From the NCBI GenBank assembly GCA_963801605.1, contig CAWDFP010000006.1:1792001-1856000 (forward strand): DNA of 64,000 bases. The letters are read 5' to 3'. Of the stretch, positions 15,996 through 63,726 are shown piece after piece. This stretch comes from an uncultured candidate division Zixibacteria bacterium. GTDB taxonomy: Bacteria > Zixibacteria > MSB-5A5 > UBA10806. The notes under the pieces are model-generated. The model was not told the origin of the DNA and did not search any database. It saw only the letters and a program-made list of their open reading frames with translations. The stretch's first letter is position 1; each line of letters starts with the position of its first letter. The translations under genes and the position numbers were made by a program.

Positions 15996-16024
15996 AAGCG
16001 GCCTCAAGCGAGGTCGCTTTTTTT
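15996..16024 (+). terminator. Intrinsic terminator after rseP, overlapping the stop codon of the convergent WYL gene
   Basis: AAGCGGCCTC-AAGC-GAGGTCGCTT followed by a T tract. Confidence 0.75.
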
Positions 16025-16942
16025 ATATCTAACTAAAGTTGATTTTAGAGTATTTATCATCTCAATCCGGGCGCATTCAGGTTCTATGATTTCGGCATCG
16101 GCTCCAAATCCAAGCACCCAGCGCAGGAACTCATCCTGTCCTGCAACGCTGATTTCGTAAATTACACTGCTATCCCCGTTTTCGGTTATTATTTCCTGCG
16201 GATGGTGCTGCGAGGTTCTTATCGCGATTGCCGCCTGCCCACTAAATTTTACCCTGAATTTAGCCTGTTTTCCGCTATAGACACCAAGGCTGCCCGCAAA
16301 ATAAGCTTCAATAGAAAATTCTTTGGGAATTTCGAATTTCTCCCGCAGAATTTCCAAATTCTGAACCCGGCCCAAACGGAAAGTACGGATTTCATTCCGC
16401 AGATAACAGAAACCGATCAGATACCAGGCGTGATGGCGAAAGCAAATCGCGTAAGGGGCGATCATGCGTTTGGTCTGTTTGCCATTGAGCGATAAATAGC
16501 TGATTTTTACTTTGAAGCGATTCCTGATGGCATCCTCGAGACGCGAGGCATGTTTGTGATTGCCCGGCCGTTCGGTAGATACCGCGCCGATATTGATTAT
16601 GTTCGCCCCATCCGCCGGAATTTCTCCGCCGGTAATCTTGTCGCTTATACGTCGAATAGTTTCGTGATAAAGCTTCCCGCTCGAAAAAATAGGCGAACGC
16701 AAAATACTCAACAAGAATCCGGCTTCCTGCAAACTGAGATTCCCCGGGGGGAGGAAACCGTTATGGAGAAGCTTATATCCGCCGTCATAGTATATAGGGA
16801 TGTTGGCTTCTGAAATCGAAATAATATCGCGGTAAATGGTGCGTTCGGTAACCTCGCAACGTTTAGCCAGATCGCAGGTGCGGAGCCGGTGATTAGTACG
16901 CAGTAGCGAGAGAATGTAAAGCAGGCGTTCGGTCTTTTTCAT
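16004..16942 (-). CDS. HTH-WYL-WCX transcriptional regulator (YafY/PafB/DriD-like)
   Basis: N-terminal wHTH (LAKRCEVTERTIYRDI), WYLIGFC..RNEIRTFRLGRV, WVLGFG..EIIEP. Confidence 0.93.
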   Translation of the reverse strand: MKKTERLLYILSLLRTNHRLRTCDLAKRCEVTERTIYRDIISISEANIPIYYDGGYKLLHNGFLPPGNLSLQEAGFLLSILRSPIFSSGKLYHETIRRISDKITGGEIPADGANIINIGAVSTERPGNHKHASRLEDAIRNRFKVKISYLSLNGKQTKRMIAPYAICFRHHAWYLIGFCYLRNEIRTFRLGRVQNLEILREKFEIPKEFSIEAYFAGSLGVYSGKQAKFRVKFSGQAAIAIRTSQHHPQEIITENGDSSVIYEISVAGQDEFLRWVLGFGADAEIIEPECARIEMINTLKSTLVRYKKSDLA

Positions 16943-16973: not shown

Positions 16974-17645
16974 TTAAGTCTTTAAGGCAAAGGGATTAAA
17001 ATTGGTTTCATAATCATAGGTGTCGATTCCCTCGACGCGTTTGAGGAATCTGACTACGATATAAGTCAACGGAGTAAATGCAGCCTCGAATCCGACCTTA
17101 AATATATAATTGGAGACGATTACCGCGAAAAGGAGATCTCCCGGCAACACTCCGTAAAATGCAATCATCACAAAAAGGAGAGTATCGACTCCCTCGCCGA
17201 TAATGGTCGATCCGATGGTTCGTGTCCAGAGCCAACGGCCTTTTGTTAAAATCTTCATCCTGGCAAGCGTATAAGAGTTTGAAAATTCCCCGGAAAAATA
17301 AGCGAGAAGCGAGGCCACTACGATTCGCGGTGTGAGGCCTAGAATCTTATCATAGGCGTCCTGATTGACCCATCCGGAGGCCGGCGGCAGTTTACCCACG
17401 ATTATAAATGTTACGGACATTAGAAAAGCGGCAAAAAAGCCTGTCCAGATGACTCGTCGGGAATTGCGATAACCGTAAACTTCGGTTAGGATATCGCCAA
17501 AAATATAACTTATGGGAAAAAGTATCGTACCGCCATCGAATGTAAACGGCCCCAGCTTTAGAATTTTCGATGAGGCGACATTCGATATCAACAGCACCGC
17601 CACGAATAGGCCGAGTATAATATCATAATACCGGTAACGTCGCAT
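16974..17645 (-). CDS. yhhQ: Queuosine precursor transporter (YhhQ/Vut_1 family)
   Basis: SNVASSK, FPISYIFGDILTEVYG, RIVVASLLAY, RTIGSTIIGEGVDT. Confidence 0.9.
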   Translation of the reverse strand: MRRYRYYDIILGLFVAVLLISNVASSKILKLGPFTFDGGTILFPISYIFGDILTEVYGYRNSRRVIWTGFFAAFLMSVTFIIVGKLPPASGWVNQDAYDKILGLTPRIVVASLLAYFSGEFSNSYTLARMKILTKGRWLWTRTIGSTIIGEGVDTLLFVMIAFYGVLPGDLLFAVIVSNYIFKVGFEAAFTPLTYIVVRFLKRVEGIDTYDYETNFNPFALKT

Positions 17646-17650
17646 ATCCG

Positions 17651-18772
17651 CTAAAATAACCCCTGGGTTTTGTCGCGAATCATATCGCTTGCAACCATGA
17701 CGGCTCTATCGAGCGAAAGAAGCCTGGTGGATTCAAATCGTCCGCGGTAGCTTGCCTTGGCGCTGGCCGGAGATGAGTAAAATTCGATTTCGGAAAAAAT
17801 ATCGCTTTTATAAACCTGTGCTTCCGGATGGTTGGTCGTATCTATCTGTCCTTTGGAAAGCTTGATAAAGATAGCGTCGCCATTATCGCTGAGATGGCTG
17901 AAAATCGTAATTTTTGAATCTTTAAATAGGGCCGCTACCGAAAGAGCATGCAAAGCGCTGGCGGCATAAATCGGCTCGCTTAAAGGATTCCCCTTGTTAT
18001 CGTCAATAAGAACTTTATACCCCTGATAATATAATGCCCAGGGATATGCGTAGCGAATCTCGCGATCAGCGCCGAGGACGATACATCCCATATCATCGAG
18101 TTTGAGCAGCGCATTTTGCACCCTGGCTCGATCAATTTTTAGCGAATCGGCAATTTCATCAGCCTGGGGGATGTGGCCTAACCTGGGAGTTTCCAGCAGA
18201 AGATGCCTATATACTTTTGCTTCATTGCCTTTAAATATCGGGATGGCTGTAAGCTCGGCCTTGTATCCGTCAAAGGCCAATTGCTGGCCGAACCATTTAT
18301 CGGAAGTCATCGAAAATAAAAAGGTTAGCCCCAGTGTCAGCGCTATGGTCACCATGCCGACCAGGGCGTTGAGAATTTTCTTATCCGGTTTTAGGAATGC
18401 CGAGCCATAGATAAAAATAATGATAGGATAAATCCCAAAGTAGCTGAGAAGTGATTTTCGCGCGATAAAATATATCGTCAACCCGATAAGGGGCAGGCAT
18501 AATCCCGTCAATCGCATCGCCCTGATCAGCGGCTCTTTGGCTCCCAGAACAAACGCTCCGGCAGTCGACAGAATCGCAAGGACAAATAATAAAGCAAAAG
18601 TAATCAGAAAAATGTAAATGCCGCTTTTAAGATTGGTTGCGGCCTCGTAAGAAAAAAGTGCGCCGAATGCCAGATAGAGAAAAAAGAAAGATCCCCAGCC
18701 CTCGAATCCATTTTCAATATAATTACGAAAACCTGAGGGAATGAAAAAATACGCCTTAATCGCCTGATTCAT
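17651..18772 (-). CDS. Multi-TM (Yip1-like) protein fused to a MerB-fold domain lacking catalytic residues
   Basis: About five hydrophobic helices, then wHTH plus IRYAYPW..IYAASALHAL..SH...G..I..EIEFYSS..LSLDRA, colinear with MerB. Confidence 0.72.
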   Translation of the reverse strand: MNQAIKAYFFIPSGFRNYIENGFEGWGSFFFLYLAFGALFSYEAATNLKSGIYIFLITFALLFVLAILSTAGAFVLGAKEPLIRAMRLTGLCLPLIGLTIYFIARKSLLSYFGIYPIIIFIYGSAFLKPDKKILNALVGMVTIALTLGLTFLFSMTSDKWFGQQLAFDGYKAELTAIPIFKGNEAKVYRHLLLETPRLGHIPQADEIADSLKIDRARVQNALLKLDDMGCIVLGADREIRYAYPWALYYQGYKVLIDDNKGNPLSEPIYAASALHALSVAALFKDSKITIFSHLSDNGDAIFIKLSKGQIDTTNHPEAQVYKSDIFSEIEFYSSPASAKASYRGRFESTRLLSLDRAVMVASDMIRDKTQGLF

Positions 18773-18781
18773 TGAATTTCC

Positions 18782-19540
18782 TTAAGCCAGGGAATAACCG
18801 CCATCAACCACCAAAACCTGACCAGTGATCCATTTAGCCTTTTCGGAGCAGAGGAAACAGACCACGTCGGCAACCTCCTCCGGCTGTCCGACTCGGCGGA
18901 ATGGCGTGCGCCGAACGACTTCATCGAGCATTTCCTGGTAACTGGGAAATCCTTTCAACGCATCGGTATCAATAAAACCGCCCGAAACGGTATTAACATT
19001 GATGAGATGCGGAGCCAGTTCAAAGGCCAGATATCTCGTAAGTGTTTCGATCGCAGCTTTTGAGGCTCCAATTGCGGCGTAGCCCGTGATATAGCGGACT
19101 GAACCAAGCGATGAGAGCGCCACAATTTTAGCTCCGTCGGGCATCATATCTCGGGCGATTTGCACTGAACGTAGAAATGCCCAGGCGTTAGTGTCCATGG
19201 AAAGATGCCAGGCCTTTTCATCGAGGTCTCCGGCCGAGGTGAATACGCCCAGGGCGGCGTTGGAAATGAAGATATCGAGACGGCCGTACTTTTCCCTGAC
19301 CTCGTCGAAAACTTTATGCATTTTTTCAGTATTTCCGATATTACAACGGATGGCCAGATGATCGCCTCCGATTTCGGACAGCTCTTTCATCATCTGGTCG
19401 GCGGCATTGCGGCTTTTGAAGTAATTGACTGCAACATTCGCTCCACCGGCTGCCAGTTTCAGCGCAATCGATTTGCCGATTCCCTTGGTGCCGCCCGTGA
19501 CAAGCGCAACCTTGCCCTCAAATTCTTTACAATTGTCCAT
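18782..19540 (-). CDS. fabL: Enoyl-ACP reductase FabL-type SDR
   Basis: TGGTKGIG, SNAALG, SSLGSVRY, Y-x6-K (YAAIGASK), LTRYLAFELAP, SGGFIDTDALK characteristic of FabL. Confidence 0.85.
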   Translation of the reverse strand: MDNCKEFEGKVALVTGGTKGIGKSIALKLAAGGANVAVNYFKSRNAADQMMKELSEIGGDHLAIRCNIGNTEKMHKVFDEVREKYGRLDIFISNAALGVFTSAGDLDEKAWHLSMDTNAWAFLRSVQIARDMMPDGAKIVALSSLGSVRYITGYAAIGASKAAIETLTRYLAFELAPHLINVNTVSGGFIDTDALKGFPSYQEMLDEVVRRTPFRRVGQPEEVADVVCFLCSEKAKWITGQVLVVDGGYSLA

Positions 19541-19760: not shown

Positions 19761-20642
19761 ATGCTTTGGAATTTCAAAAGCCCCGTTGATTCTTCAACTC
19801 ATAAATGGTCTATGGCAAGGCAGGAAGCCTGGGACGATTGCCAGAGGAAATATTATTACCAATACAGGGGCTCCGCGAAACAATCCAAACATCCGCAAAA
19901 AGATCAAATTACGAAGCTCAAACAAAAAAGAACCTTAGCGCATCTAAAAGGAGAGATCGTTCATGCTGCGCTGTCCGACTATATCCGTTATTTTAGTGAA
20001 GGCAAACCGGAAGCGATGACAACGCTGTTCGAAACCCGCTGGTCCAAAATGATAGCAAAACCCGAGGATGCGCTGATCGAGTTCACCAATGGCCGGGGAT
20101 TGGCTGCGGCTCTCATCGAACAGGCCCGAATTGACTCCCTGAAGCTTTTGGATAATTTTGTCCAAATGTGGCCGGAGTATGAGAAGGATGAAATTCTCTA
20201 TATCGATGATCCCGATGATTATCCCGGATGGTTTAATTGCGGGGGTTTGGGAGTTTACGGAAGGCCGCATTTGATTGTTAAACGTGATAAAAATACAATT
20301 GTGAACTGGAAAACCGGAGAGGAACCCGATGATTTCTCCGATAATATTTACGAAATGTCGACTTCGATTTATATGGCCTGTTTCGATTACAATGGGAATA
20401 TCAGGGCTTACCCGGAGGAGTTCGAGGGGCTGTTTCAATACCTGCCCACCAAATCCAAATCGAAAAAAATAACTCGGACGCAAAACGACTATGAGCAATT
20501 TATTGAATCTATCGACGAGATAATAAACGATTTACCCGATTCATTTATGGAAGAACGATATATCCCGGATCCCGCTAAATGGAAATGCAAAAACTGCAAT
20601 TTCGCAACCGTTTGTCATGATGGCAGGCAGCTTCTGGATTAA
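19761..20642 (+). CDS. PD-(D/E)XK nuclease-fold protein (Cas4/AddB-like, four-Cys Fe-S motif) with atypical active site
   Basis: RBS GGAGG; WS..R..W.DCQRKYYYQY, GEIVH, GRPHLIV..IVNWKTG, C-terminal CKNCNFATVC. Confidence 0.85.
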   Translation: MLWNFKSPVDSSTHKWSMARQEAWDDCQRKYYYQYRGSAKQSKHPQKDQITKLKQKRTLAHLKGEIVHAALSDYIRYFSEGKPEAMTTLFETRWSKMIAKPEDALIEFTNGRGLAAALIEQARIDSLKLLDNFVQMWPEYEKDEILYIDDPDDYPGWFNCGGLGVYGRPHLIVKRDKNTIVNWKTGEEPDDFSDNIYEMSTSIYMACFDYNGNIRAYPEEFEGLFQYLPTKSKSKKITRTQNDYEQFIESIDEIINDLPDSFMEERYIPDPAKWKCKNCNFATVCHDGRQLLD

Positions 20643-20666
20643 TAGGTTTTGGCAGGTTCTGAAATT

Positions 20667-20753
20667 TGGTGCCGGAGGGGGGACTTGAACCCCCACGGAC
20701 TTACATCCACTGCGCCCTGAACACAGCGTGTCTGCCAATTCCACCACTCCGGC
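20667..20753 (-). tRNA. tRNA-Leu (anticodon CAG)
   Basis: Reverse complement GCCGGAGTGGTGGAATTGGCAGACACGCTGTGTTCAGGGCGCAG...GGTTCAAGTCCCCCCTCCGGCACCA; long variable arm, encoded CCA. Confidence 0.97.
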
Positions 20754-22389: not shown

Positions 22390-23700
22390 ATGTATTGGGT
22401 AAGCAAAACGCTTCATCGCTTGGGACGAATCAAACATCAGCTCGTAATATTTATGGCCGTTTTGGGGCCGGGCATTATTACGATGGTGGCTGATAATGAT
22501 GCCGGCGGCATTTCGACTTATGCGGTTACAGGTTCTAAGTATGGTTTCAACCTGCTCTGGGTTTTTATCATCCTGATTCCCATGGCGTATTACGTTCAGG
22601 AAATGACTGTCCGTCTGGGGGCTGTAACCAAGCGCGGGCATGCCGAGGCAATTTTTGACGGTTTCGGTTCATTCTGGGGCTGGTTTTCGCTCTTTGATCT
22701 GGGGGTTGTCAACTGGCTTACCTTGATTACCGAATATATCGGAATGATCGCGGCCTGGAGCATGTTTGGCATAAATCCTATTATTACATTTATCGTGGTT
22801 ACCGCAATTTTGATGGCAGTAGTCATGACCGGAAAATACTGGACTTTTGAAAAACTCACCCTGGCTTTCTGCATTTTCAATTTCGTATATATCCCGGCCG
22901 CAATCTGGGCGATGCATATACCATCAGCCCCAGGATGGGGGGCAGTTTTTAAGGGCTTTTATCATCCTCATTTCCCCAACGGAGTAACTCCCGATCTAAT
23001 ATTTATTATTATGGCCTGTATCGGGACTACAATCACTCCCTGGCAGATATTTTTCCAGCAAAGCGCGGTGGTGGATAAGGGCGTTGATATTCACGATGTC
23101 AAATATGGCAAGCTCGATACTTTCGCCGGTTCGTTTTTAACCGGGCTTGTGGCCATATTCATTATCATTGCCACCGGGGCGGCCTTTTATTATCATCAGC
23201 CGCCAATTACCGTACAGGATGCCACCCAAACCGCCAATGCTTTAGCACCGATTTTACCCGCAGGCGAGGGACATTGGGCCAGAATTTTATTTGCTATCGG
23301 CCTATTTGACGCCGGCTTTTTGGGGGCGCTATGTATTTCGCTTTCAACATCCTGGGCGTTTGGCGAAATATTCGGATGGGCACATTCACTTAATAGGAGC
23401 GTCAAGGACGCTCCCTGGTTCTACGTAGTTTATCTTCTGACACTGGTAACAGCCGGTGCGGTTGTTCTGATTCCCGGAGCGCCTCTCATCATCATTACGA
23501 TGTTTGTACAAGTTGTGGCAGTAACATTGTTACCAGCGGCCCTGATATTTTTAATCTTGCTCCTGAACGATAAAGACCTGATGGGCCAGCATACCAACAC
23601 ACGATTTCAGAACATTGCCAATTGGGGAATCGTAATATTTGTTATAGTCATGTCAACTTTATTCGCCATATCGGTGCTGTTTCCGAACGTGTTTGCCTGA
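22390..23700 (+). CDS. Nramp-related divalent metal transporter (DNDAGG subgroup, probably Mg2+)
   Basis: GPGIITMVADNDAGGISTY, QEMTVRLG, GTTITPWQIFFQQS; about 11 TMs. Confidence 0.88.
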   Translation: MYWVSKTLHRLGRIKHQLVIFMAVLGPGIITMVADNDAGGISTYAVTGSKYGFNLLWVFIILIPMAYYVQEMTVRLGAVTKRGHAEAIFDGFGSFWGWFSLFDLGVVNWLTLITEYIGMIAAWSMFGINPIITFIVVTAILMAVVMTGKYWTFEKLTLAFCIFNFVYIPAAIWAMHIPSAPGWGAVFKGFYHPHFPNGVTPDLIFIIMACIGTTITPWQIFFQQSAVVDKGVDIHDVKYGKLDTFAGSFLTGLVAIFIIIATGAAFYYHQPPITVQDATQTANALAPILPAGEGHWARILFAIGLFDAGFLGALCISLSTSWAFGEIFGWAHSLNRSVKDAPWFYVVYLLTLVTAGAVVLIPGAPLIIITMFVQVVAVTLLPAALIFLILLLNDKDLMGQHTNTRFQNIANWGIVIFVIVMSTLFAISVLFPNVFA

Positions 23701-23707
23701 GGTGTTT

Positions 23708-25001
23708 ATGGAAATGCGGCATAGTAAAAAATTCGTATTGCCTGGCGATTCCGGGATCGGCCAGGATTTCCGATTTCTTTATTTCTCAGAGCTATTAAAA
23801 AAGCCGGTGGTATCCGGTAATATTAAGAATCGAATTGGCAAGCTCACCGATCTGGTTTTTCGTTTAAGTGAGACATACCCCGAAGCCGTCGGAATATACC
23901 TTGAATATGGTTGGGGAAAACCGACAGAGTTTATTCCCTGGGATAAAGTGATTAAAATCGAGGACGATGCCATATTCGTGCAGCCGCCTCCGGATGGCGG
24001 TCAATATCCTCCGTTCGCGGATCAGGTGGGCTGGGTGATGCTAAACCGCCATTTGATGGGCCGGACGATTCTCGATATGGATGGCCGCCGTATCGAGGTG
24101 GTTAATGATGTACATCTGCTCGAATCGCGCGGGCGGATGATAATTGTTCACGTGGATATTTCGTTTAACGGCTTCTTGCGCAGGCTCGGACTTCGGAAAG
24201 CCCGCTGGCTAAAAGAAAGGTTAATCTCCTGGAAATATGTTCAGCCGCTTTCGGTGGAGGATGCCGCTGCCACTGACGCTGTATCGCTTTCCATAACTCG
24301 AAAATCGGTTAAGGACCTTCCCAGCGAAGACCTGGCAGATGCTCTGGAAGAGCTTTCAGGCGATGAGCAAGAGGCGTTTTTCTCAGCTCTCGACCGCGAA
24401 TCCGCCGCCGATGCTTTGGTCGAAGCCGAGCCGCGCGTGCAGAGGCAGCTTATAGCCAGCCTTCGAAACGAAAGGGCCAAGGCGATCCTTTCTGAGCTAT
24501 CAATTGCTCAATTGGCTGACCTGTTTACGGTCTTGCCTCGCGATCAAATGGTCCAACTCCTTTCGCTGGTACCATCCGAGGACGCCAAGCGAATTCGAGG
24601 CATTCTTTCCGAACGGGAGCAAACCGCATCAGGGACTTATGTCACCCGAATTTGTGACCGCTCTACCGGGCGATATGGTGGCCGATGTTCTTAAGGGTAT
24701 CCGAGCCTCCAAAAGAGAACATGATGAGATCAGCTATATTTATATTGTCGATCCCGAAAAAAATCTGTTAGGCGTCGTTGATATCCGAGAGCTCCTTTTG
24801 GCGGCGGATGACACCGTTATGGAGCGGATAATGACTACCCCGGTTGTCGAGGCTGAATCAACGGACCTTCGAGAGGACCTGGAGGAGATGTTTGTGAAAT
24901 ATCATTACCGGATGATCCCGGTTGTGGAGGGTACTCGCATAATCGGAGTGGCCTATTATAATCACATTATGAAAGGACTCGTCACCCGAGCCAAAACCTG
25001 A
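23708..25001 (+). pseudogene. PRC-barrel + MgtE N-terminal + CBS-pair soluble protein, +1 frameshift at GGG 24632-24634 (probably an assembly error)
   Basis: ILDMDGRRIEVVNDV, DLADALEEL; ...EQTASG joins LMSPEFV...IYIVD..LLGVV..IPVV if one G is removed. Confidence 0.82.
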
Positions 25002-41928: not shown

Positions 41929-42084
41929 TTAAAGGAAGAAAAAGGGGACTGGAAAGGGCAAATATTATACTTGCCAGAAAGAAATAAATTGGATGATGCC
42001 GATATTTATGATAGAATCCACAAAATATGTTAAATCCTTCGGAGAACGGTAGAAATGCTTAAACGGCATCGAGATGCAAAACAA

Positions 42085-43374
42085 ATGAGATATTTAATAA
42101 TAATCTTGTTATTAATGGCACCGCCGCTGATAGCTCAGGATCACGGCTTATTTGGTGATACGCTAAGCATGGAAGATGTGGTCAAATATGTGGTCAAACA
42201 TAATGACCGCGCTGCTGCCATGCGCTATATGGAAAAGGCCGAAAGTGAGAAGATCGGCCCAGCCGGCGCCTGGGATGATCCCATGCTAATGATAGGAGTA
42301 ACAGGCCTGCCGACCTCCTTAAGTTTTACCGAGGAAGATATGACCATGAAGATGATTGGCCTTAGTCAGAAGATACCATACGCCGGTCAAAGGAGATTTG
42401 AAGGCAAAGCCGCCTCATCGCAGGCCGCGGCCGCCCGAGAGAATACTCGCGAAACCGAACTTGATTTAAGTACAACAGCCCGAAATGCATATTTGAATCT
42501 ATATTACCGTCAGCAAGCGCTAAATCTCATCATCAGCCAGCGAGAGATTCAAAACGATATAGTTTCAACTGTGATCTCGAAGCTTCAGACCGATCAGGCG
42601 AGTCAGGCTGACGTTGCCGCCGCCCAGGCCGATCTCTGGCGTCTCGATGCCGATATACTGTCATCACAACAGGAAATTGACGCCTCAATAAATGATCTTT
42701 ACGCCGTTATGGGCCAGGAAAAACCGATGGGAGTTCCCAAGCTTGCCGAGCCGGACTTTAGCGCTATTCCCGCCGATTTGGATAAATGGATTGCTTCCGC
42801 CCAGGAAGATTATCCGCCTCTTAGGCGATCCCGGAATATGGCAGATAGTTATGCTTATTCTGCCTCTGCGGCGCGTAGAATGCGTTGGCCAATGCTTGAA
42901 CTGGCCGCAAGTTATGGCATCCGTCAAAATGGTGGGATTGATCCAATGACCGGTTTAACCATGCAGCGCAGAAACATGATTAGTTTTCAAGCCAATATCT
43001 CGCTTCCGATTTTCTCCGGCAGGTCGCAGGGGAAAATGGCATCATCAATGGAGGCTATGAGGCTGAGCGCCGTGGCCGAGTTGAACCAAACCTGGCGCGA
43101 TACCAAAGCCAATCTCGAAACCCTTTACTCTGGTAAGGAACGTTTGACCCAGAGCTTGAAATTATACCAGAAACGGATTATTCCGGCTGATGAGGATGCG
43201 TATCGAAGTGCCATGGTCGGATACTCAGCAAGCAGGGTGCCGTTCGTGAGTCTCTTGAATTATGCGATGAATATCTATCGTGATCGTCTGGCCGCCAATC
43301 AGATTGCTTATCAATTGGATCAAATTATGGTGCAGGCCGGGCGATATATTTCAAATCCCGATAAGTGGGAATAA
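42085..43374 (+). CDS. TolC-family outer membrane factor (CusC-like)
   Basis: Signal peptide, WDDPMLM, LSQKIPY.G, ISLPIF; first gene of an RND operon. Confidence 0.85.
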   Translation: MRYLIIILLLMAPPLIAQDHGLFGDTLSMEDVVKYVVKHNDRAAAMRYMEKAESEKIGPAGAWDDPMLMIGVTGLPTSLSFTEEDMTMKMIGLSQKIPYAGQRRFEGKAASSQAAAARENTRETELDLSTTARNAYLNLYYRQQALNLIISQREIQNDIVSTVISKLQTDQASQADVAAAQADLWRLDADILSSQQEIDASINDLYAVMGQEKPMGVPKLAEPDFSAIPADLDKWIASAQEDYPPLRRSRNMADSYAYSASAARRMRWPMLELAASYGIRQNGGIDPMTGLTMQRRNMISFQANISLPIFSGRSQGKMASSMEAMRLSAVAELNQTWRDTKANLETLYSGKERLTQSLKLYQKRIIPADEDAYRSAMVGYSASRVPFVSLLNYAMNIYRDRLAANQIAYQLDQIMVQAGRYISNPDKWE

Positions 43375-43404
43375 TCACAATAAATTTGTAGCAAGGAGTA
43401 TTTA

Positions 43405-45357
43405 ATGTCCGAAAAAAATTATGATCCCACAGAGCATGAGCCATTGCCCGAAGGCACTGAAGCGCCTCCGCCTTTGACGCATACCATGGCTATCATACGC
43501 TGGGCGATTCTTATAGCGATGTCGCTTTTCGCGCTGGGAATGATTCTTTCGTGGATCGGCTTTGCTCCCTGGGAAGCTCATGCCGATAGCACGGTTCAAT
43601 ATCACTGCCCGATGCATCCCACCTATATCTCGAATCAGCCCGGCGAATGCCCCATCTGCGGCATGAGTCTGGTTCCGATTGATAAATCGGGCAAGGAGAT
43701 CAAAGCGACTCAAGATTCGAAATCGACTAAAGCCAAAACGCCAGATAAAATTACGAAATCAACTAAAATGGCAAATATGGTTCAATACACCTGTCCAATG
43801 CATCCTGAGGTTATTACTGATAAACCGGGAAAATGCCCCAAATGCGGAATGAATCTGGTGGCGATGACTCCGGAGAAAAAATCCCAGGCGCCAAAAGAGG
43901 CGGTAATCCAGGCCGCATTATATGTATGCCCCATGGATCCGGAGGTGACATCGGATAAACCCGGTTCTTGTTCAAAATGCGGGATGGATTTGGTAAAATC
44001 GTCCGGCTCCGATTCAACTGTTGCGCCCAGTTCGATTACCACTGGCAACAATGAAAATAAACCGGCAGAAATTATATCCGCTAAATATGTTTGCCCGATG
44101 GACCCGGAGATAACATCAGACAAGCCCGGTCGATGCTCGAAGTGCGGCATGTTCTTGAAGGCTGCCGCAACTGATACCACTAAGTCAATGCCGATGCCCA
44201 ATAGCGATCCGGAAAAAACGGGAGATATCGGGGATCAGAGCATGCCGGGAATGAATATGTCGGGTTCTAAAGAAACCAGCAGTATGGGAGAAGCGCCAGT
44301 CAACGGACTGGCGCCCGTTACCATTGAGCCCGAGCGGTTGCAGCTTATTGGTGTTAAAACCGCCATGGTCGCTCGTCGGAATTTAGGCGGCGAAATTAAT
44401 ATTGTTGGTTCCGTAACACCCGACGAAACCCGGATGAAAAATATTAATGCCAGAGTTAACGGCTGGGTACAGGATCTATATGTCGATAAGACCGGCCAAT
44501 ATGTCGAGGCCGGAAAACCGTTGCTTTCGCTCTATAGCCAGGAGCTTTACCAGGCCGAACAGGATTTTATTTTGGCACGAGATGCTGCTAAAGGGAATCC
44601 CTCTGATCCGGCGCTCACTAATATGCGAAACCAAATTTATAAAGCGGCCAAAGATCGCCTAATGTTATTGGGACTTTCCGACGATCAAATTAATGAAATC
44701 GATAACTCCGATGCTCCCAGGCAGGATTTGACCCTCACGAGTCCATTTTCCGGTTTCGTAATTGAGAAAAATGTTTTGCCCGGCCAATATCTCAGTCCCG
44801 ATCAAAATTTATTCACGATCGCTGATTTGAGTAAAGTCTGGATTATGGGCGATGTTTATGAACAGGATATCTCAAGTGTTCATGTTGGTCAGAAAGCAGT
44901 TGCGCATCTTACAGCTTTCCCCGGCGAGGAATTCGAGGGAACAATCGGCTATATTTATCCTGAGCTTTCGGAGCAAACCCATACAATGAAAGTTCGTATC
45001 GAATTTGCAAATCCGGCCAATCGCATTCGTCCCGGCATGTACGCGAATGTCAACCTTGAGAGCAGCAAAGGCGAAATGCTTTCTGTGCCCAGCGATGCTG
45101 TTCTCGATGGCGGCAAAGAGCAGTATGTATTTGTTGTTCATGATCGTATTCATTTTGAGCCGCGGCTGGTAAAGATCGGCCATACCTCGGATGATTATAT
45201 CGAGATTACAAGCGGTCTTCGTGAAGGGGAGACCGTTGTTTCAAGCGCTAATTTCCTGATCGATTCTGAAAGTCGTCTAAATGCGGCAGTGGCAGGAATG
45301 TCAACAATGCCGGATATGCCCGATATGCCCAAGACGAATCAAGGGACTTCAAAATAA
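43405..45357 (+). CDS. cusB: CusB-like RND periplasmic adaptor with four heavy-metal-binding (CPM[H/D]P..C..CGM) repeats
   Basis: Four YxCPM repeats; [32 protein letters not shown]. Confidence 0.88.
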
Positions 45358-45400
45358 ATATGAATCGTTTCAAACTTTGGTATAATAAAGAAAACTAATA

Positions 45401-48400
45401 ATGATAAGAGCCATAATAGATTTCTGCGCCAGAAATAAGTCTGTAGTAATTATTGCTACGCTCTTTGCCATTTTTGGAGCTTATTTTTCTATTAAGAGTA
45501 TCGCGCTCGATGCCATACCCGATCTATCAGATACGCAGGTTATAATATATACCGACTGGATGGGACGCAGTCCCGATCTGGTCGAGGACCAGGTAACTTA
45601 TCCAATCGTGACCGCTCTTCTCTCGGCGCCGCATGTTACGGCGGTTCGCGGCTATTCGATGTTTGGCATGTCGTTTGTCTATGTCATTTTCGAGGATGGC
45701 ACCGATATGTACTGGGCCAGAAGCCGCGTTCTGGAGTATATGAGCCAATTCCAGGGCAAGCTTCCGCAAGGTGTATCGCCCATCCTTGGGCCGGATGCGA
45801 CATCAATCGGTTGGGTATATCAATATGCTTTGACCGATACCACGGGCCAAAACGACCTGGCCGATATCCGGACTTTTCAGGATTTCACTCTGCGATATGC
45901 GCTTTCGTCGGTGCCAGGAGTGGCGGAGGTAGCCAGTATTGGCGGTTACCAGAAGCAGTACCAGGTTGAAGTCGATCCCGATAGGTTACGCGCCTATAAT
46001 ATATCTATCGGTGATGTCACCCGCGCCATCCGCGCCAGCAATAACGATGTGGGCGGACGGGTAATCGAGATGAGCGGTCGGGAGTATTATGTTCGCGGAC
46101 GAGGTTATATGCATGATCTCGATGCTCTTCGTCAGATAAGCCTCGGCGTTGGGGAGGGTGGCACCCCGATACTTTTAGGCAGCATTGCCAAGATTAGCTA
46201 CGGACCGGATATCAGTCGCGGCGTAGGTGAACTAGATGGTATTGGTGAGTCGGTAGGCGGTATCGTTATTATGCGTCATGGCGAAAACGCTCTTGATGTC
46301 ATCAAGCGCGTTAAAGATAAAATAGCCGAATTAAAACCGAGTTTCCCCAGCGGAATGGAACTAAAGCCTGTTTATGACCGCAGCAACCTTATAAACCGCG
46401 CTATTGATACTCTGAAACATAGCTTGATCGAAGAAGGTATTGTCGTCGCTCTCGTGATTTTTATTTTCCTGCTGCATTTCCGAAGTTCGCTGGTGCCAAT
46501 TATCGCTCTGCCTGTTTCAGTGGGGCTGGCCTTTATCCCGATGTATTTCCTTAAAATCAATTCCAATATCATGAGTCTGGGCGGAATCGCTATCGCGATA
46601 GGAGCAATGGTTGATGCCAGCATTGTACTTGTGGAAAACGCTCATAAGCGATTGGAAAAAGCGCCAGCGGGGGTAGACCGTAAAGAGGTCATCATCGCCG
46701 CCGCCAAGGAGGTTGGCCCCGCTATATTTTTCTCGCTGCTGATTATTACTGTCGGGTTTATTCCGATTTTCGCTCTCAATGGCCAGGGTGGACGGCTTTT
46801 CAAACCGTTAGCTTACACCAAAACATTCGCCATGTTTTTTGCAGCCATCGTCTCAATTACGCTGGCTCCGGCGTTGATGACACTATTGATTCGCGGCAAA
46901 ATCAAACACGAATCGGAACATCCGGTATCGAAATTTCTGATCAAGCTTTACAAACCGTTCGTCTATGTCGCTCTTAGAAACCCCAAAACTACAATCGCCA
47001 TCGGTCTCGCTGCCATTATCGCCTCCATTCCGATGATGCCCAAGATCGGCTCGGAGTTCATGCCGCCTCTAAATGAGGGCGATATCCTTTATATGCCGAC
47101 CACCTTTCCCAATATCTCGGTCGAACAGGCCAAACAGTATATGCAGTATCAGGATCGGATTATTAAGAGTTTCCCGGAGGTAATCTCAGTCTATGGCAAA
47201 GCCGGACGAGCCGAGACCCCCACCGATCCCGCGCCGCTTTCGATGCTCGAAACCGTGGTGCAGCTAAAGCCGCGTGACCAGTGGCGCAAAGTGCAGGTGG
47301 ATCGCTGGTATTCGAGTTGGGCGCCGGAATTTTTGAAATCAATGTTACATCCGCTCTGGCCGGAGGAACGAACAATTAGCTGGCAGGAGCTATTAGATAA
47401 ATTCGATAACGCCATGAAATTTCCCGGCTGGACCAACGCCTGGACTATGCCGATTAAAACTCGAATCGATATGCTTTCGACCGGTATCAGGACACCAATT
47501 GGGGTGAAGATATTCGGAACTGATCTTAATGAGATTGAAAAGATCGGGATGCAGCTTGAAAAATCGCTTTCGAAAATCCCCAGCACCCGAAGTGTTTATT
47601 CCGAACGCAATACCGGCGGGTATTTCATCGATATTATTCCCGACCGCGAGGCGATTGCCCGTTACGGCCTGACCATGAAAGATGTGCAGGATGTTATCGA
47701 AACCGCAATAGGCGGGATGCCGATTGAGGTCACTATCGAGGGGCGAAACCGCTTTACGATCAATGTGCGCTATCCACGCGATCTAAGGCAGAATATTGAG
47801 CGTCTGAAGGAAATTCCGGTACCGCTTCCGAATGTGGCCGGAAACAGCGCGCCATCATCATCGATGGAAATGGGGAGCATAATTGGCAAAGTTTCACCGA
47901 TGCTGGCCAGCACCGATCTCGATGGAATATACAACCCCTGGGGCGATGGAGTCGAGTTGGCGCAGATGAATACCATGGGTGGTGGCTCCAGCGGAGGCGA
48001 TTCGCAAAATATGCCTGGCGGCGCACCATCAGCAGGTGGTATGCAATCTTCTCAAGCGCCATCAATGGGTAAAGGTTCGGCGCCTGCTAAGAGCTTTATC
48101 CCCGAAAACAGGCCGAATATTCCTTTGGGGCAGATTGCCGATATCAAAATTGTCACCGGCCCGCCAATGATTAAAGACGAGGCCGGGATGCTGGTCGGAT
48201 ATGTCTTTGTCGATATGGATCAGGCCAAACGCGATATCGGCGGATATGTCAATGAGGCCAAGAAAGTCGTAGCCAATGAGGTGAAAATTCCGCCAGGATA
48301 TTATCTCAAATGGACCGGCCAATATGAGCTGTTGGAGCAGATGACCGCCCGCATGAAGGTCGTGGTGCCGATCACACTCATACTGATAATAATCCTGCTC

Positions 48401-48904
48401 TATTTCAATTTCCGCAATCTGACCGAGACTTTCATTGTGCTGGCATCGGTGCCGTTCGCGCTGGTGGGAAGTATCTGGCTGATGTATTTCCTCGGATACA
48501 ACTTTTCGACCGCCACCTGGGTGGGGATAATCGCCTTGGTGGGTTTGGCGACAGAAACAGGAATTGTCATGGTGTTATACCTCGATCACGCCTATGAGCG
48601 TCGCAAGAAAGCCGGACAGATGCGCAATCTCGATGATATCATCTGGGCGCACATGGAGGGCACCGTAATGCGGGTTCGCCCCAAGCTGATGACCGTGGGA
48701 ACCACCATGATCGGCCTGGTGCCGCTGCTCTGGGCGCAGGGGACAGGCGCCGATGTTATGAAGCGAATCGCCGCTCCTATGGTGGGAGGATTGATCAGCT
48801 CGACATTTTTGACGCTTGAAATTATTCCGGTGGTATACACATACTGGCGCTATTGGCAAATTAAGCATGAGAAAGCGCCAATTGAACCGAACAAAGCCAT
48901 ATAA
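45401..48904 (+). CDS. cusA: CusA-family Cu(I)/Ag(I) RND efflux pump with a Met/Gly/Ser-rich insertion
   Basis: DAIPDLSDTQV, LYMPTT, PLSMLET, RIDMLSTG, RVRPKLMT, MKRIAAPMVGG. Confidence 0.93.
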   Translation: MIRAIIDFCARNKSVVIIATLFAIFGAYFSIKSIALDAIPDLSDTQVIIYTDWMGRSPDLVEDQVTYPIVTALLSAPHVTAVRGYSMFGMSFVYVIFEDGTDMYWARSRVLEYMSQFQGKLPQGVSPILGPDATSIGWVYQYALTDTTGQNDLADIRTFQDFTLRYALSSVPGVAEVASIGGYQKQYQVEVDPDRLRAYNISIGDVTRAIRASNNDVGGRVIEMSGREYYVRGRGYMHDLDALRQISLGVGEGGTPILLGSIAKISYGPDISRGVGELDGIGESVGGIVIMRHGENALDVIKRVKDKIAELKPSFPSGMELKPVYDRSNLINRAIDTLKHSLIEEGIVVALVIFIFLLHFRSSLVPIIALPVSVGLAFIPMYFLKINSNIMSLGGIAIAIGAMVDASIVLVENAHKRLEKAPAGVDRKEVIIAAAKEVGPAIFFSLLIITVGFIPIFALNGQGGRLFKPLAYTKTFAMFFAAIVSITLAPALMTLLIRGKIKHESEHPVSKFLIKLYKPFVYVALRNPKTTIAIGLAAIIASIPMMPKIGSEFMPPLNEGDILYMPTTFPNISVEQAKQYMQYQDRIIKSFPEVISVYGKAGRAETPTDPAPLSMLETVVQLKPRDQWRKVQVDRWYSSWAPEFLKSMLHPLWPEERTISWQELLDKFDNAMKFPGWTNAWTMPIKTRIDMLSTGIRTPIGVKIFGTDLNEIEKIGMQLEKSLSKIPSTRSVYSERNTGGYFIDIIPDREAIARYGLTMKDVQDVIETAIGGMPIEVTIEGRNRFTINVRYPRDLRQNIERLKEIPVPLPNVAGNSAPSSSMEMGSIIGKVSPMLASTDLDGIYNPWGDGVELAQMNTMGGGSSGGDSQNMPGGAPSAGGMQSSQAPSMGKGSAPAKSFIPENRPNIPLGQIADIKIVTGPPMIKDEAGMLVGYVFVDMDQAKRDIGGYVNEAKKVVANEVKIPPGYYLKWTGQYELLEQMTARMKVVVPITLILIIILLYFNFRNLTETFIVLASVPFALVGSIWLMYFLGYNFSTATWVGIIALVGLATETGIVMVLYLDHAYERRKKAGQMRNLDDIIWAHMEGTVMRVRPKLMTVGTTMIGLVPLLWAQGTGADVMKRIAAPMVGGLISSTFLTLEIIPVVYTYWRYWQIKHEKAPIEPNKAI

Positions 48905-62622: not shown

Positions 62623-62634
62623 GAAGGGTTGACG

Positions 62635-63726
62635 ATGGCTGAAAAATTATTCATGAAAGGCAACGAGGCTCTGGCCGAGGGTGCGGTTCGAGCCGGTTGC
62701 CGTTTTTTTGCGGGTTATCCGATCACCCCGCAAAATGAAGTACCTGAATATATGTCATGGAGAATGCCCGAGGTCGGCGGCACCTTCATACAGGCTGAAT
62801 CCGAGGTTTCCGCCATCAACATGCTCTATGGAGCATGCGGCGATGGGGAAAAGAGTAATGACATCATCGTCATCGCCGGGTATCAGCCTCAAGCAGGAGG
62901 GAATCTCGTACTGCGCTTCAGCGGAGCTTCCCGATCTTTTTCGCTAATGTTGTTCGCGGAGGCCCGGGCCTTGGCAATATCGCTCCCTCGCAGGGCGATT
63001 ATTTTCAATCAACCCGAGGCGGCGGGCATGGCGATTATCGCGTGATCGTACTGGCGCCCAAAAGCGTTTCAGAGATCGCTAATTTCCCCAGGCTTTGCTA
63101 TGATCTGGCCTTCAAGTATCGTATCCCGACCATGATTTTGGCCGATGGCATCATCGGCCAGATGATGGAGCCGCTGGAGTTCGATTTCGAACCGGTGGAT
63201 CCCAAATCATTCGGAGCTTCCCAAATGGGCGCTGCGAGGCAGCGGCGGTGCAGAAAGACGAAGAGTCAACTCTTATGATCTTCGCCCCAGCTATATGGAG
63301 AAGTGGAATTTCCGTCTCGAGGAAAAGTATAACCAGATCACCGCCAATGAAATCAGATTCGAAACCAAGAATATCGAAGACGCTGATATCGTTCTGGCAG
63401 CTTATGGCACATCCGCCAGAATCTGCGAAACAGCGTTAACTCTGGGCAGGCGCGAAGGTCTTAAGATAGGTTTGGTTCGTCCGATCACCGTCTGGCCGTT
63501 CCCGACTCAGGTTTATCGGGATCTGGCCAAGCGGGTCAAGAAATTCCTGGTAGTCGAAATGAGCCTTGGGCAGTTTGTCGAGGATGTCCAGCTTTCCGTT
63601 AACGGTAAAGCCGAGATTTATCTTCACAAACGTCCGGCAGGCGCAATTCCCACCGGCGAGGAAGTTTTGGATATCACCAAAAAGATCCTGTCCGGCGATC
63701 AATCCAAGCTTTTTGCAAGGCCGTAG
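62635..63726 (+). pseudogene. vorB: 2-oxoacid:ferredoxin oxidoreductase alpha subunit (VorB-type) with three +1 frameshifts (~62837, ~62931, ~63212), probably assembly errors
   Basis: GYPITPQ..QAESE / [14 protein letters not shown] / [23 protein letters not shown] / RPITVWPFP..VEMS.GQ spread over successive frames. Confidence 0.88.

Follow-up and report, generated by a model that had tools for sequence, protein, structure and literature searches.

What does a protein do that has the predicted fold of the organomercurial lyase MerB and a membrane anchor, and none of the residues with which MerB cleaves its substrate? The question is raised by ORF X, an intact gene in the window, by which we mean the whole stretch of 64,000 nucleotides of Zixibacteria DNA that was analysed. 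The original prediction saw in X a MerB fold put to a new use while tethered to the membrane, possibly with a Ser/His hydrolase-like site or acting as a ligand-binding sensor. The reading favoured here, to which we give a probability of about 0.52, is that X is a non-catalytic binding or scaffold module, a MerB fold minus the catalytic cysteines, likely on the periplasmic, outer side of the inner membrane. The features of the gene and its neighbours are collected in Table 1.

Table 1. ORF X, its predicted parts and its neighbours, in window coordinates
Feature	Position	Strand	Remarks
ORF X, intact, 373 aa	17651..18772	-	5-TM anchor, wHTH and Cys-free MerB-fold core
X N-terminal membrane domain, residues 1-161	18290..18772	-	five predicted TM helices, preceded by two short ones
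X linker, residues 163-176, predicted beta-hairpin	18245..18286	-	AF2 model
X winged helix-turn-helix (wHTH), residues 182-245	18038..18229	-	corresponds to the MerB N-terminal domain; net acidic over residues 202-245
X residues 246-373, fold of the MerB catalytic domain lacking the catalytic thiols	17654..18037	-	fold searches and profile alignment
X S272-x-x-H275, at the positions of MerB Cys96/Asp99	17948..17959	-	profile alignment
X L294, at the position of structural Cys117	17891..17893	-	profile alignment
X F326, where MerB has the catalytic Cys159, preceded by a shortened loop	17795..17797	-	profile alignment
FabL-like SDR, upstream neighbour	18782..19540	-	NF005975 306 bits against a cut-off of 328; identity between related loci 79-92%
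YhhQ/Vut_1 queuosine-precursor transporter, downstream neighbour	16974..17645	-	TIGR00697 133 bits, cut-off 51
HTH-WYL-WCX regulator, adjoining here, not a conserved part of the locus	16004..16942	-	Pfam and locus comparison

The X reading frame starts 9 nt past the fabL stop codon and ends 5 nt before the start of yhhQ; an AGGA motif lies 7 nt upstream of its ATG, and it contains no in-frame TGA. The AF2 model, made from a 28-row alignment, has a pLDDT of 85.5. Its five long helices (residues 26–44, 48–75, 81–104, 108–124 and 129–161) coincide with five peaks of the family-mean hydropathy, in agreement with the N-terminal domain of about five TM helices that had been predicted. Pfam assigns the wHTH of X to TrmB (E 5.4e-6); in the model this domain is followed by an alpha/beta core. 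One cysteine, C230, is left in the wHTH, where 10 of 28 homologs share it, and another, C92, is invariant in TM3.

Fold searches with the model lead to MerB. All 11 Foldseek matches with E ≤ 0.001 are MerB or MerB2 (best E 9.6e-8). VIA-align superposes the model on MerB2 (5c17) with Z 19.4 and an rmsd of 3.3 Å over 185 residues, and on 3f2g with Z 16.8 and an rmsd of 3.7 over 179; the row after the MerB structures drops to Z 9.7. On the strength of these matches residues 175–373 of X are predicted to form the MerB fold over its full length, wHTH included, in line with the original description of a wHTH followed by a MerB-colinear domain. The PF03243 score of X is 16.1 bits, under the gathering cut-off of 27, and 10 of 28 clade members match this family at E ≤ 0.1 (best E 5e-4). 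A PDB search with the X sequence alone retrieves no more than a wHTH, at E 1.2; with the family profile it reaches MerB2 (E 0.002).

Residues were mapped with a 24-row profile, holding X together with Cys-bearing relatives, that was aligned to solved MerB (E 1.7e-12; 5e-28 against MerB2). In this alignment Cys96 of MerB corresponds to S272, Asp99 to H275, Cys117 to L294, Cys159 to F326 and Cys160 to S327, while about nine residues are deleted from the loop preceding Cys159. The earlier claim that all catalytic residues are replaced is thus confirmed; the segment IYAASALH had also been picked out correctly, but it occupies 17948–17971 and not 17948–17968, the codon for I having been omitted. 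MerB activity is described as needing Cys96, Cys159 and Asp99 (PMC10114901), and Cys117 as structural (PMC10114901, PMC8261052). Since the three essential residues are gone from the aligned positions, X cannot, by its sequence, be an organomercurial lyase of the known mechanism.

The window had been said to contain no mer genes, and among the 32 of its 54 ORFs of at least 100 aa that were scanned no MerA or MerB scores over the Pfam cut-off. The whole genome of the window (87% complete) has no match to PF03243 and no TIGR02053 MerA over the cut-off. It does encode a pyridine nucleotide-disulfide oxidoreductase, under the MerA cut-off and split across two frames (G000:C6:1205801-1207097). Elsewhere in the window lie CusCBA-type heavy-metal efflux genes (42055–48901; the MFP has 4 HMBD repeats) and, at 22390–25001, a pair of Nramp and MgtE-like genes, none of them conserved neighbours of X. 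At 62629–63723 there are two ORFs where the related locus L002 has a single ORF of 364 aa, a gene which we take to be 2-oxoacid:ferredoxin oxidoreductase-like.

X belongs to a small clade. A word-indexed search returns 28 proteins, the query included, of 304–383 aa and 43–66% identity, and wherever the taxon is named it is Zixibacteria. When 1.84 billion representatives were searched with a profile, 72 matched at E ≤ 0.001: 58 are MerB-like proteins, 11 are members of the clade or fragments of them, and 3 (P0046, P0075, P0080) are spurious. This search brought out a second subfamily, of 242–262 aa, in which the Cys-free domain is preceded by a single N-terminal TM helix (hhalign probability 100 and E 2.9e-42 against the 5-TM subfamily); a further search adds nine of these 1-TM members. 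The phylum was covered by 285 genomes, of which 10 give a match, eight with a clade member and two with a Cys-bearing MerB-like protein. All eight clade-bearing genomes fall within the 14 genomes of the window's family, four of them with the 5-TM and four with the 1-TM form, one copy of the latter being cut by a contig end. In quick trees, from which rows of <150 aligned residues were excluded, and in one case also four long branches, a branch with SH-aLRT 100 sets the clade apart. It is a narrow clade, present in one family of the phylum, and its members appear dispensable.

Conservation was assessed over 45 members, namely 29 of the 5-TM form (one a fragment) and 16 of the 1-TM form, with fragments P0029, P0035 and P0036 excluded. 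Cysteine occurs in none of the 45 at position 272 or 326, which extends to the clade the original observation that X has no Hg-binding thiols at the MerB site. The structural Cys117 position, 294, is L, I, V, F or M in all 45, position 326 is mostly F, Y, I, V or L, and D296 is invariant (45/45). Residues 321–373 are the most conserved segment of X (mean pairwise identity 0.64 within the 5-TM subfamily). Twenty positions are common to both subfamilies at ≥85%; apart from E184, D296, Y321 and S334 they are chiefly structural residues (L, I, A, G, P, W245, F331).

A Ser/His hydrolase-like site had been suggested for the S-x2-H pair, and X could accordingly be a new enzyme, at least in the 5-TM subfamily. 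Here position 272 is S in 25 members, N in 3 and D in 1, position 275 is H in 24, Y in 3 and D in 2, S327 is kept in 28/28 members covered, and Y321 and W245 are invariant along with D296. In the 1-TM subfamily, however, position 272 is G in 10 and S in 6, and position 275 Y in 11 and H in 5 (overall H 29, Y 14 and D 2 of 45). S272 and H275 occur together in only 26 of the 45; full-length 5-TM members without the pair have N/Y, D/H or S/D, and 1-TM members mostly G/Y. A clade-wide catalytic pair is therefore refuted and the hydrolase site unsupported. S272 directly precedes helix 273–282 of the AF2 model. Helix N-caps are typically S, G, N or D; position 272, which takes these four residues, is on the model a helix N-cap, and this too counts against a catalytic serine. 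A Ser/His enzyme is improbable, though the conserved S272, H275, S327 and residues 321–373 may reflect an activity particular to the 5-TM subfamily.

X might instead be a decaying merB relic without function: it has been lost from 6 of the 14 family genomes and diverges faster than FabL. Against this, the frames are intact (371–383 aa, 43–66% identity), internal stops are found in none of the eight genome matches, and in two genomes, G254 and G256, it is fabL that is broken and not X. Nei-Gojobori estimates were made on 8 sequences, with 8 pairs listed. Seven of these, between the window and other loci, are at or near saturation at synonymous sites (dN 0.26–0.54); the one unsaturated pair, L002 against L010, gives dN 0.076 and dS 0.85 for X, a dN/dS of about 0.09, with 0.068/0.74 for the core domain and 0.073/0.85 for yhhQ, the same as for X. 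By this single unsaturated pair X is under purifying selection and is not simply decaying, which leaves a functionless relic scarcely credible. Lack of S/H conservation among homologs had been proposed as a sign of simple decay; the pair is indeed not clade-wide, yet the dN/dS contradicts decay.

As selection keeps X intact, it is likely a non-enzymatic binding module and not a mercury enzyme or a new hydrolase. The original view, of a MerB fold repurposed and held at the membrane without Hg-binding thiols, is supported, as is its distinction from simple decay, and of the two roles then proposed ligand binding is the better. In the binding module that we favour, the old metal site would be filled by the N-cap residue and by the bulky side chains of H/Y and F/Y, and the site so filled would bind, without cleaving a bond, either a partner protein or some small organic ligand. 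X would be co-expressed as a dispensable accessory of its operon, in which YhhQ is the first candidate partner. The clade is a branch under purifying selection that has lost all thiols and gained a membrane anchor, likely a return of the fold from an enzyme to a non-catalytic module.

The membrane domain had been called Yip1-like by pattern. Both the model and the hydropathy have the Yip1-type layout of short N-terminal helices followed by five TM helices, and Yip1 is the third Atlas match of X (0.84). The X TM domain is colinear with Yip1 proteins by eye, and a global hhalign of the two is colinear from end to end over the helices, with E 0.0023 and a probability of 5%; other runs give 0.2–11%. 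With a Yip1 profile X ranks 26 of 261 membrane ORFs, and none of the 28 members has a Pfam match to Yip1 (PF04893) at E ≤ 0.1. The five-TM layout is predicted, and the likeness to Yip1 is a resemblance only. Folded alone, the TM domain has a pLDDT of 89.9 and retrieves nothing better than E 0.44 with Foldseek and Z 6.7 with VIA, which is no proof of a new fold. YhhQ was tried as a look-alike of the TM domain and rejected (hhalign 0.2%).

The function of X could lie in this domain, as a Yip1-like membrane organiser to which the MerB fold is a passive appendage. In addition to the colinear helices, E80, R87, C92 and P94, at the start of or within TM3 (window 18491–18535, residues 80–94), are invariant in 28/28 5-TM members. 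The 1-TM subfamily, however, retains the MerB fold and the locus without four of the TM helices, and the segment under greatest constraint is at the other end of the protein, in residues 321–373. A membrane organiser is very unlikely.

Which side of the membrane the MerB fold faces bears on its role. The four inter-helix loops of the 5-TM form contain on average 0.78, 2.64, 1.14 and 2.0 K+R, a distribution that reads as N-in/C-out and so would put the MerB fold in the periplasm. The 1-TM forms give a weaker signal: of fifteen, nine have more K+R before the TM helix than after it, four have equal numbers and two have fewer; the TM count is odd in both anchor types (5 and 1). Charge counts, on which the placement depends, thus suggest that the MerB-fold domain faces outward, to the periplasmic side of the inner membrane.

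The alternative is a cytoplasm-facing tethered regulator, with the wHTH serving for DNA binding and either the MerB core or the TM bundle as ligand sensor. At E ≤ 0.1 TrmB is matched by the wHTH of 17 of the 28 members, LexA by that of 10 and GntR by that of 9; the wHTH is well conserved (mean identity 0.59), and the topology is a prediction. Nevertheless this wHTH belongs to MerB itself, with which it aligns in one piece, and the loop charges favour C-out. The DNA-binding surface of an HTH is typically not net acidic, whereas residues 202–245 have a net charge of -2.0 in the 5-TM form (range -3 to 0) and -1.9 in the 1-TM form. With a wHTH at about -2 that is an ordinary part of MerB, the DNA-binding half of the original sensor proposal is not favoured, and a tethered regulator seems rather unlikely.

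The genomic setting was compared in 12 related loci, which are partly redundant and probably overlap with the set of genomes. Wherever the sequence extends far enough, fabL is directly upstream of X (10/10 loci) and yhhQ directly downstream (11/11). Conservation of the fabL/yhhQ/WYL neighbourhood, which the original prediction proposed to check, holds for the first two genes and not for the third: a WYL gene is directly 3' of yhhQ in only 2 of the 12 loci (L001, L005), and three others have a partial 50% WYL match about 3 kb upstream. Between fabL and a tRNA gene the window also has a PD-(D/E)XK nuclease ORF (19761–20753) that is in 0/12 related loci. Several 1-TM proteins have called N-termini that overlap the last codons of fabL. 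Apart from tRNA, Rfam finds no riboswitch or other family near the X locus, and promoter and terminator scans there are near chance (12 against 6.9±2.6 and 8 against 5.1±2.1).

Within the family fabL and yhhQ are adjacent without X in 5 of 14 genomes (G250, G251, G252, G258, G259), and a sixth, G249, has fabL with neither X nor yhhQ beside it. In G254 and G256 fabL is reduced to a remnant and the 1-TM gene is retained; the G254 locus (L024:7315-8124) keeps only a 3' remnant of fabL, upstream of the 1-TM gene, and the G256 locus (L026) has an internally deleted copy. A tree of FabL and YhhQ was built from 16 loci, not all of which have both genes. It unites the five X-less genomes (bootstrap 84) and places the 1-TM genomes next to the 5-TM locus L003 (79), a grouping that recurs in MerB-domain trees (84–87). 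With a root anywhere but on the X-less branch, X was ancestral in the operon, became shortened once and was lost once from the X-less group. The best reading of the gene order is that X is a dispensable accessory of a fabL–X–yhhQ operon.

X could serve the queuosine-precursor transporter YhhQ/Vut_1 as a capture subunit that faces outward. The proposal is based on the coupling of X upstream of yhhQ wherever the sequence extends, on its outliving the loss of fabL, and on the presence of tgt in 14/14 family genomes as against near full-length QueC in three. Those three are G260, which has X, and G249 and G252, which do not; QueF is over its cut-off in the window genome, G260 and G249. X as a tracker of queuosine synthesis was consequently rejected, since the distribution of QueC and QueF is unrelated to its presence. 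With tgt universal in the family and QueC/QueF unrelated to X, salvage by YhhQ does not require X. We hold a capture subunit to be unlikely. The window genome also has queF beside a second yhhQ-like gene, 49% identical and matching residues 2–112 only (G000:C6:1913167-1913819).

X can be set against three known systems. With MerB (PF03243; PDB 3F0O/3F2F/1S6L) and MerB2 (5C17) it shares the wHTH and the duplicated treble-clef core, over about 185 residues. Unlike MerB it has no Cys96, Cys159 or Cys117, the Asp99 position being D in 2 of the 45 clade members; its Cys159 loop is about nine residues shorter, and it has an N-terminal membrane anchor and no mer context. SaoL is described as a MerB-like selenoprotein found outside mer operons, cytosolic, with Cys/Asp/Cys-Sec kept and encoded in a nine-gene SAO locus (10.1101/2022.07.06.499078). 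It is the best NCBIfam match of X (NF040728, E 6.3e-7, 29.5 bits, far under the cut-off of 140). In contrast to SaoL, X has F326 in place of the Cys-Sec (CU) motif and no in-frame TGA, and its conserved neighbours are fabL and yhhQ, not the SAO locus.

The third is NosL, which belongs to the N2O reductase system and is described as a non-catalytic lipoprotein that binds Cu(I) and has the MerB core fold; the MerB fold itself is derived from metal-binding TRASH repeats (PMC4999995, PMC10114901). The available text of the reviews treats MerB as an evolutionary orphan, with NosL as its only known structural relative (PMC4999995, PMC10114901). By analogy X probably works like NosL rather than MerB and is a member of neither functional family. 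It differs from NosL in being a true sequence homolog of MerB with a wHTH, in having a TM-helix anchor and no lipobox, and in lacking nos context; NosL is absent among the 50 VIA-align matches listed for X, a list filled by wHTH matches.

The comparison raises the possibility that X is a NosL-like, thiol-free metal binder or chaperone of the envelope, using the oxygen and nitrogen donors of His, Asp and Tyr. In its favour, besides the TRASH descent and the Cu(I) binding of NosL, are a position 275 that is always H, Y or D, the invariant D296 and a net acidic soluble domain (mean -2.6 and -7.1). There is, however, no constant set of metal ligands in the clade, because 10 of the 16 members of the 1-TM form have G at 272, and bulky hydrophobic residues predominate at 326. 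Nor is there any metal transporter or mer gene among the conserved neighbours of X, in the 12 loci and the family genomes. We regard a metal binder as unlikely beside the binding module that we prefer.

Where X came from is suggested by a group of Cys-intact MerB-like proteins, including P0063 and P0079 and annotated as hypothetical or alkylmercury lyase, which like X have a short Cys159 loop, a W in the A-x-P/W-P motif region, D296 and a hydrophobic N-terminus. In the 120 listed of 173 matches Cys96, Asp99 and Cys159 are kept throughout (120/120), unlike in X, and D296 is shared by 97. An N-terminal hydrophobic segment is present in 95 of these 120 short-loop homologs against 4 of 53 other MerB-like matches. 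A1 aligns with P0063 with an hhalign probability of 97.3 over 196 columns, including the last TM. Free quick trees leave the sister of X unsettled; a tree constrained to unite X with the short-loop group is 21 log units above the free quick tree, and the AU test does not reject their union as one clade (p-AU 0.894). With the X profile the short-loop proteins reach a median of 36 bits and other MerB-like proteins 42, the latter having been selected by that profile. X possibly descends from this membrane-anchored, Cys-intact, short-loop group.

We found no description of a Cys-free membrane-anchored MerB clade in the literature covered, which mostly leaves out subscription papers and supplements (e.g. 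the MerB alignments of PMC8261052). A survey of MerB, as far as its available text goes, knows only 99Ser and 117alt variants (PMC8261052), and MerB has elsewhere been screened by its catalytic residues (PMC12484752). A caution for annotation follows, in that MerB-like matches are not all demethylases. X, together with the Cys-intact anchored and lipoprotein MerB-like groups, suggests that the fold has envelope roles apart from mercury detoxification.

The lipoprotein group consists of three MerB-like ORFs of about 310 aa from another family of the same phylum: L051:919-1854 (G020), L052:910-1863 (G006) and L055:1423-2352 (G009). Besides a lipobox at residues 23–27 each has an additional helical region at the N-terminus and a wHTH, and its MerB core keeps Cys96 and Cys159 and has Glu at Asp99; by sequence they are apparently exported. 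Some members of the short-loop set (P0063, P0079, P0116-P0231) have Cys-rich multi-TM leaders (e.g. P0079 and P0129, Elusimicrobia), and P0063 and P0132 (Polyangiaceae) have a signal anchor and a Cys-Cys motif. Two further MerB-like genes, L043 (G055:C75:3310-3693) and L050 (G017:C2:364982-365347), have one in-frame TGA each, falling at the Cys159-region cysteine of the uninterrupted relative L044, and are candidate selenoproteins distinct from X. Finally, P0053, P0054 and P0061 are Cys-intact MerB-like domains that appear, by eye, to be fused to MerR-like, MerA-like and MerT-like parts.
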